Positions 6,586 through 7,246 of a stretch of 7,246 nucleotides of DNA are shown one piece after another. The DNA comes from Escherichia coli. Its GTDB lineage: Bacteria > Pseudomonadota > Gammaproteobacteria > Enterobacterales > Enterobacteriaceae. Numbering within the stretch: position 1 is the first letter of the stretch; each line of letters starts with the position of its first letter. The translations under genes and the position numbers were made by a program. The stretch lies in NCBI RefSeq assembly GCF_003334765.1, contig NZ_QOWT01000061.1. One strand, given 5' to 3'. The notes beneath the pieces are model-generated. The model was not told where the DNA came from, ran no database searches, and saw nothing but the letters and a program-made list of their open reading frames with translations.

Positions 6586-7246
6586 TGAACTCAGGCTGCC
6601 AGATCATCGTTTCCAATGGATGGAAGCATAATAAGCTTTTTCTGCTTCTGCCGGAGGAGTATGACTCAGCCTTTCCAGCAATCGTCGATTGTTATACCAG
6701 TCCACCCACGTGAGTGTGGCCAGTTCCACTTCTGCACGTTTTTTCCAGCTCTTACGGTGTATTACCTCCGCTTTGTAAAGACCATTGATGCTCTCCGCCA
6801 TCGCGTTGTCATACGAGTCGCCTGTACTCCCTGTTGATGCCAGCAGTTTTGCTTCTTTTAGTCGCTCCGTATAGGCCAGTGACACATACTGAGAGCCTTT
6901 ATCGCTGTGATGGATGGTGCCGGACGGACGACGGGCCCACAACGCCTGCTCCAGTGCATCCAGCACGAATGTCGTTTCCATGGACGATGATACCCACCAT
7001 CCCACGATATATCCGGCAAATACATCAATGATGAACGCCACTATAGACGAAGCCCTGCCATGTGCTGACGTAAGTAAAATCAGCCACCCACAGCTGGTCA
7101 GGACGTTCTGCCACGAACTGACGGTTTACGCGGTCACCTGCGGCAACGGTTTTCCGGCTGACGGTAGTGCGGACCTTTTTACCCCGGAGAACACCGGCAA
7201 GTCCCATAACCGCCATGAGGCGCGCCACTGTACATCTGGCCACCCT
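6586..7246 (-). mobile_element. Partial IS3-family insertion sequence (IS629/IS1203-like), right end, running off the window
   Basis: The minus-strand ORFs encode an IS3-family DDE transposase OrfB (HHSDKGSQYVS; GDSYDNAMAESINGLYKAEVIHRKSW). The terminus TGAAC at 6586 is consistent with an IS3-family end, with the transposase stop close to the inverted repeat. Only about 660 bp of the element is in the window. Confidence 0.75.
6604..7243 (-). pseudogene. IS3-family transposase orfB, disrupted by a frameshift near 7025-7045
   Basis: Two minus-strand ORFs (7025..7243 and 6604..7041) overlap by 17 nt in different frames. Together they read as one continuous OrfB (...DFTYVSTWQGFVY / AFIIDVFAGYIVGW...), which implies a 1-bp indel. 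The first ORF ends prematurely (YSGVHH*). Confidence 0.65.

Follow-up and report, generated by a model that had tools for sequence, protein, structure and literature searches.

The window, a 7,246-nt stretch of an Escherichia coli contig (NZ_QOWT01000061.1), ends in an insertion sequence relic on the minus strand (6577..7246). The relic is almost certainly a non-functional fragment of an IS629/IS1203-type element that has lost its ends, is broken in frame and is passively inherited with a pAA-type plasmid. It corresponds to an internal piece of this IS3-family element (IS coordinates 618–1282 of 1310), and would be placed on a pAA-type E. coli plasmid, amid IS debris that has the IncF backbone gene DUF1281 on one side and the agg3 operon on the other. 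The relic is ordinary and already known, the stretch being flagged in RefSeq as a frameshifted, incomplete IS3-family pseudogene. The coordinates of the individual features are given in Table 1.

Table 1. Coordinates of the relic's features, of neighboring genes in the window and of related IS629 copies elsewhere.
Feature	Location	Strand	Details
vapC/vapB	146-801	-	From annotation of matching plasmids
ccdA/ccdB	about 1390-1920		From annotation of matching plasmids
Site-specific integrase	1921-2730		From annotation of matching plasmids
CopG-like regulator and AAA ATPase	2868-3781	-	From annotation of matching plasmids
parM	4010-4981		From annotation of matching plasmids
Partition/stability protein	4950-5378		From annotation of matching plasmids
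Junction of 1979-bp deletion	6240..6241	.	umuC 3' part (-) joined to DUF1281 3' part (+), TG microhomology; not part of the relic
IS256-family IS1414-like terminal 36 nt	6541..6576	+	GAGCCTGTTTAAGATTCTGTGTAAATGCCTTGTCTC; outer end on backbone, inner side fused to IS629 coordinate 1282
Downstream orfB piece, frame B	6604..7041	-	145 codons, GTG start; begins VAFIIDVF, VAFIIDVFAGYIVGW...; ends early in ...YYASIHWKR-stop
4-nt insertion	6615..6618	-	AATG on + strand; last 7 codons shifted, GNDDLAA-stop to HWKR-stop
Upstream orfB piece, frame A	7025..7243	-	72 codons; ends ...WQGFVYSGVHH-stop, i.e. ...DQLWVADFTYVSTWQGFVYSGVHH-stop; holds first catalytic Asp (codon 7079-7081)
1-nt insertion	7042	-	T on + strand, A on coding strand; splits orfB between GFVY and VAFIIDVF
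Full-length IS629 copy, both inverted repeats	Dog168 chromosome segment 1473-2783		Next to papI
Full-length IS629 copies, both inverted repeats	Two chromosome segments, 1473-2781 and 1344-2653		Next to LysR gene
IS26-truncated IS629 copies	Two F-type plasmids		Same 1-nt insertion

Identity of the relic and its frame-breaking insertions

The two minus-strand ORFs of the relic are pieces of one IS3-family transposase, with a similarity far beyond chance. When compared with the NCBIfam profile NF033516 (369 positions), the ORF at 7243–7025 aligned to positions 167–234 (E = 2.1e-16) and the ORF at 7041–6604 to positions 236–369 (E = 1.9e-46). The fragment repaired by removal of the two indels scored 237 bits against the same profile (cut-off 160; E = 3e-70), and its translation matched rve (4.7e-25), rve_3 and rve_2 in Pfam. 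The relic is assigned to the orfB gene of the IS3 family because both ORFs map to adjoining parts of NF033516 and the rve core is found on the joined translation. All residues of the DD(35)E motif are present, plus a lysine at +7, with the second aspartate (6901–6903) and the glutamate (6793–6795) carried by the downstream piece. The orfB codons retained in the window are 80–295, the 3' two-thirds of the gene, and the first 79 codons are absent.

The references used were the IS1203 copy on a pO157-type plasmid, annotated as 'IS3-like element IS1203 family transposase, programmed frameshift', and other annotated intact copies, including that of E. coli BH100. The BH100 copy is the nearest intact one among those compared (17 substitutions per 665 nt), while the relic is 98.5% identical to a full-length frameshifted copy in the Dog168 chromosome. 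A megablast search of 5,426 complete E. coli genomes found the same stretch in thousands of records. Both IS1203 and IS3411 count as isoforms of IS629, the sub-types of which are 4–5% apart (PMC3271280). The relic resembles these 1310-bp elements in its DNA (95.1% identity to the annotated IS1203 copy over 670 blastn columns, with 5 gap positions), in its repaired translation (209/216 residues, or 96.8%, identical to IS1203 OrfB residues 80–295) and in its retention of the DD(35)E residues and lysine. It differs from them in lacking the inverted repeats, orfA, the -1 frameshift site and the ALIL pseudoknot, and in containing two frame-breaking insertions. The description of this stretch as an IS3-family (IS629/IS1203-type) transposase remnant in the initial annotation is thus borne out by the NF033516 and rve matches and by the identity to IS1203.

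The relic has no uninterrupted orfB frame, whereas intact reference copies do. The frameshift that had been suspected near 7025–7045 is real, and consists of an extra T at 7042 relative to the intact references. It had been asked whether the reference IS shares the broken arrangement; it does not, since the intact references read through GFVYVAFIIDVF in a single frame (GFVYVAF; DNA GGCTTCGTCTATGTGGCGTTC). Copies annotated as IS1203 or IS629 align over 65 nt with the extra base missing. The variant with the extra base, GGCTTCGTCTATAGTGGCGTTC, is found in the window, Dog168, pE1246_1, the two LysR-adjacent copies and the two F-type plasmid copies. Its effect is to part the first catalytic aspartate from the second aspartate and the glutamate. 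The divergence that had been noticed in the C-terminal residues is likewise genuine, and the 4-nt insertion at 6615–6618 is responsible. In the alignment to the Dog168 and IS1203 copies, the window ends in ...YYASIHWKR-stop, compared to ...YYASIGNDDLAA-stop in the reference.

Single-base indels are a frequent error type, and it could be argued that both insertions are sequencing or assembly errors and that the true orfB fragment is in frame. This reading is exceedingly improbable. The 7042 allele, as an exact 66-mer, is present in 341 independent records of complete E. coli genomes, spread over at least four genomic contexts. The exact 4-nt allele is present in 30 records, and in 5,702 records the best copy is without the insertion. 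Moreover, neither site is a homopolymer run. The recurrence of the exact alleles in complete genomes rules out the sequencing error that had been considered as a source of the indel.

It is hardly more credible that the 145-codon ORF (6604–7041) has been retained as a truncated rve-domain regulator, for example a dominant-negative inhibitor of related transposases. The frame is open from its GTG, and only 7 substitutions in 216 residues separate the translation from IS1203 apart from the last codons; however, this conservation is as expected for a young relic, the first catalytic aspartate and the N-terminal DNA-binding part are missing, and PGAP treats the stretch as a pseudogene.

Boundaries of the relic and loss of mobility

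Elements of the IS629 group are expected to have the inverted repeats TGAACCGCCCCGGG... and ...CCCGGGGCGGTTCA. In every full copy compared, the homology to the relic stops at the base equivalent to 6577, IS coordinate 1282, and the terminal 28 nt with the right inverted repeat (TGAACCGCCCCGGG...) are deleted from the window. Full-length copies end in ...CTCTCCAGGAAACCCGGGGCGGTTCA, the equivalent on the + strand of the window being TGAACCGCCCCGGGTTTCCTGGAGAGTG directly left of TTTTATCTGTGAACTCAGG. A search of the window for the right inverted repeat did not find it, the real repeat of full copies being located 28 nt outside the homology boundary. The initial annotation had placed the IS end at about 6586, a position that was rejected as a terminus for this reason; the TGAAC at 6586 only looks like a repeat end and occurs internally in all full copies.

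The 36 nt between the relic and the backbone (6541–6576) belong to a different element. Homology to the IncF backbone, as seen in a plasmid without an IS at this place, ends at 6541, 9 nt past the stop codon of DUF1281. This 36-mer has an identical starting base next to three left flanks that are unrelated to one another (the window and two other loci). At one locus it is directly 3' of a pseudogene annotated as 'IS256-like element IS1414 family transposase', with a 2-nt overlap at the stop codon, and the identity to tips located 3' of IS1414-family transposase genes is 94–100%. A divergent right repeat and backbone DNA were both considered for 6542–6576 and rejected, as the segment has no IncF backbone match and matches IS1414-family ends. 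Neither an IS256-type transposase gene nor a second inverted repeat was found next to the tip, the IS629 homology beginning after 36 nt. The segment is like IS1414 (IS256 family, carrier of astA/EAST1) in sharing the terminal 36 nt at a conserved boundary, and unlike it in that the window holds the tip only, without transposase and without astA. Most E. coli copies of IS1414 are decayed by deletions (PMC12585946).

These comparisons indicate that it was an IS1414-like element that created the junction with the backbone. At 6576/6577, internal DNA of the IS1414-like element meets internal DNA of the IS629-type element, and this boundary is therefore a deletion junction rather than an insertion junction. 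The right repeat (28 nt) is lost, and 36 nt from an IS1414-like end stand in its place. The composite IS1414/IS629 junction is present in 92 records.

On the left, IS coordinates 1–617 are missing from the window, which ends at 7246, and coordinates 1–596 are missing from plasmid pE1246_1 (NZ_CP025574.1). This plasmid is 99.9% identical to the window over 6540–7246, including the backbone/IS1414/IS629 junction and both indels. Its IS629 homology runs for only 21 nt past the equivalent of the window end, to IS coordinate 597. Next come about 140 nt from an IS600 end and then the left end of an IS3, beyond which lie agg3D and agg3C, two genes for aggregative adherence fimbria III. The identical stretch in pE1246_1 carries the RefSeq/PGAP label 'IS3 family transposase; frameshifted; incomplete; missing N-terminus'. 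Plasmid p55989 (NC_011752.1) also matches the window, relic included, at 99.1%, in three pieces. An Rfam scan of the window gave no family at gathering score, including the ALIL frameshift pseudoknot; intact copies have an 'AL1L pseudoknot' feature annotated.

Judging from these near-identical plasmids, the source copy probably had neither the left repeat nor orfA, and its programmed frameshift region would be gone too. In the sister plasmids the IS600 fragment stands where the left 596 nt of the element should be. Lost with that segment were the left repeat and orfA, the programmed -1 frameshift site and its pseudoknot, and the beginning of orfB. No 3-bp target-site duplication was found for the relic, which has no termini and is flanked by the IS1414-like tip on one side and, in the sister plasmids, by the IS600 fragment on the other. 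One intact reference copy is flanked by an AAC/AAC target-site duplication. As side observations, four different IS fragments are stacked upstream of the AAF/III operon in pE1246_1, the IS600 and IS3 pieces among them being at segment 3729–3979, just past the equivalent of the window end, and the IS3 left end is located about 120 nt before agg3D.

The relic could alternatively be a complete IS3-family element with its right terminus at about 6586, inactivated only by the frameshift and mobilizable by the transposase of another copy. The TGAAC at 6586 does resemble the opening five bases of the inverted repeat of IS629, and full-length copies with the same 1-nt insertion and both repeats exist (Dog168 and LysR-adjacent). 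Nevertheless, such an arrangement is very improbable here, given the homology boundary at 6577 with the true repeat 28 nt outward, the internal position of this TGAAC in full copies, the IS1414-like nature of 6541–6576, and the stop of the sister plasmids at IS coordinate 597. The end-less fragment remains the favored interpretation. The relic is predicted to encode no transposase and to offer no ends, and would be unable to move even with a transposase supplied in trans, because the right repeat is gone from the window and the left repeat, orfA and frameshift signal are gone from near-identical plasmids, leaving no substrate for a transposase. The copy had been described as probably immobile unless supplied in trans; the immobility holds, and the rescue in trans does not.

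The umuC–DUF1281 deletion

Comparison of the window with pE1246_1 by blastn gave two matching segments, window 5795–6241 with segment 275–721 and window 6240–7246 with segment 2701–3707, which overlap by 2 nt (TG) in the window. The 1979 bp that are lost cover umuD and a dinI-like gene, together with the 5' part of umuC and, on the other side, two-thirds of the DUF1281 gene from its 5' end. In pE1246_1, umuD, the dinI-like gene and DUF1281 are complete, and umuC extends past the window breakpoint and is annotated as a frameshifted pseudogene. The umuC/DUF1281 junction was found in 0 of the 20,395 records searched (5,426 complete E. coli genomes), and none of the top plasmid matches in PLSDB covered the window in one piece. 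The orphan ORF at 5864–6532 (222 codons) spans the deletion junction and is an artefact of it. The distances quoted in the initial annotation were about right, with the orphan ORF ending at 6532 and the umuC breakpoint at 6240/6241.

IS activity had been proposed as a plausible cause of the umuC truncation, and could have acted through an IS-mediated adjacent deletion or through IS copies recombining with each other. Only about 340 bp separate the relic from the breakpoint, and IS debris is abundant in the region (an IS3 fragment at 10–104, IS1414 and IS629, with IS600 and IS3 just past the window). This origin is nonetheless highly unlikely. Both endpoints are located in unique umuC/DUF1281 coding DNA, 336 bp and about 2.3 kb from the relic, and neither coincides with an IS terminus or repeat, the 2-nt microhomology being all that the two sides share. 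The event is similar to an IS-mediated adjacent deletion in that it is near an IS, but the endpoint exactly at an IS terminus that defines such deletions is absent. Moreover, several plasmids with the identical dead relic, already without ends or transposase, retain the full umuC-umuD-dinI-DUF1281 segment. In pAA-type plasmids, the IS3-family pseudogene annotated upstream of agg3D is the same relic (99.9% over 6540–7246), and there, unlike in the window, the 1979 bp separating umuC from DUF1281 are still in place. Because the identical dead relic is found in plasmids that still keep the undeleted segment, the relic appears to be older than the deletion and to have been inert already when it occurred. 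The deletion itself looks like an illegitimate, microhomology-type event rather than an IS-mediated adjacent deletion.

A further difference was observed within umuC, where pE1246_1, at about position 282 of the compared segment, is without 108 bp (window 5687–5794) between two copies of CGGCAATA, a segment that the window keeps. This loss in pE1246_1 is an independent small deletion, and that umuC is the one annotated as frameshifted.

Related copies, order of events and plasmid context

The 7042-type allele is found in every member compared of an IS629 sub-lineage that includes full-length copies with both inverted repeats as well as IS26-truncated copies (Table 1). The sub-lineage copies differ from the window by 5–8 substitutions per 665 nt, and copies carrying the 1-nt insertion differ by 5–13 substitutions per 665 nt. 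The insertion might mark a non-autonomous sub-lineage that spread after loss of its transposase, via trans-mobilization by intact IS629/IS1203 copies or gene conversion, in which case the copy in the window would be one of its dead-end descendants. In favor of such a spread are the 341 records, the full-length copies at two or more chromosomal loci and the truncated copies on two or more plasmid types. We consider it a rather doubtful proposition, as the full-length copies checked, in Dog168 and next to the LysR gene, showed no clean 3-bp target duplications.

A plausible order of events can be derived from how widely the alleles are shared, rather than from a phylogeny. The 1-nt insertion would have arisen first, in the whole IS629 sub-lineage (341 records). 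A copy would then have been truncated and fused to the IS1414 end (92 records), after which the 4-nt insertion would have arisen (about 30 records). The 1979-bp umuC–DUF1281 deletion, unrelated to the relic, would be the latest step and private to the window (0 other records).

Such IS debris is commonplace on pAA and IncF virulence plasmids. The biological weight of the relic is small, and its practical value is in annotation: it should be labelled an end-less fragment that lies nested with debris of IS1414, not a mobilizable IS, with the IS600 debris past the window end assumed from the sister plasmids, and it should not be invoked for the umuC truncation. The private 1979-bp deletion is the sole feature here that sets the replicon apart from its sequenced relatives, and could therefore serve as a strain marker.

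At the other end of the window, positions 10–104 contain an IS3 left-end fragment (inverted repeat and orfA start) in reverse orientation, which is 92.6% identical to the IS3 left end upstream of agg3D in pE1246_1. The backbone homology of the best plasmid matches begins at 105; thus, the backbone segment of about 7 kb is bracketed by IS debris. Positions 146–5378 form a typical IncF maintenance block, in which the gene names were taken from the annotation of matching plasmids (Table 1).
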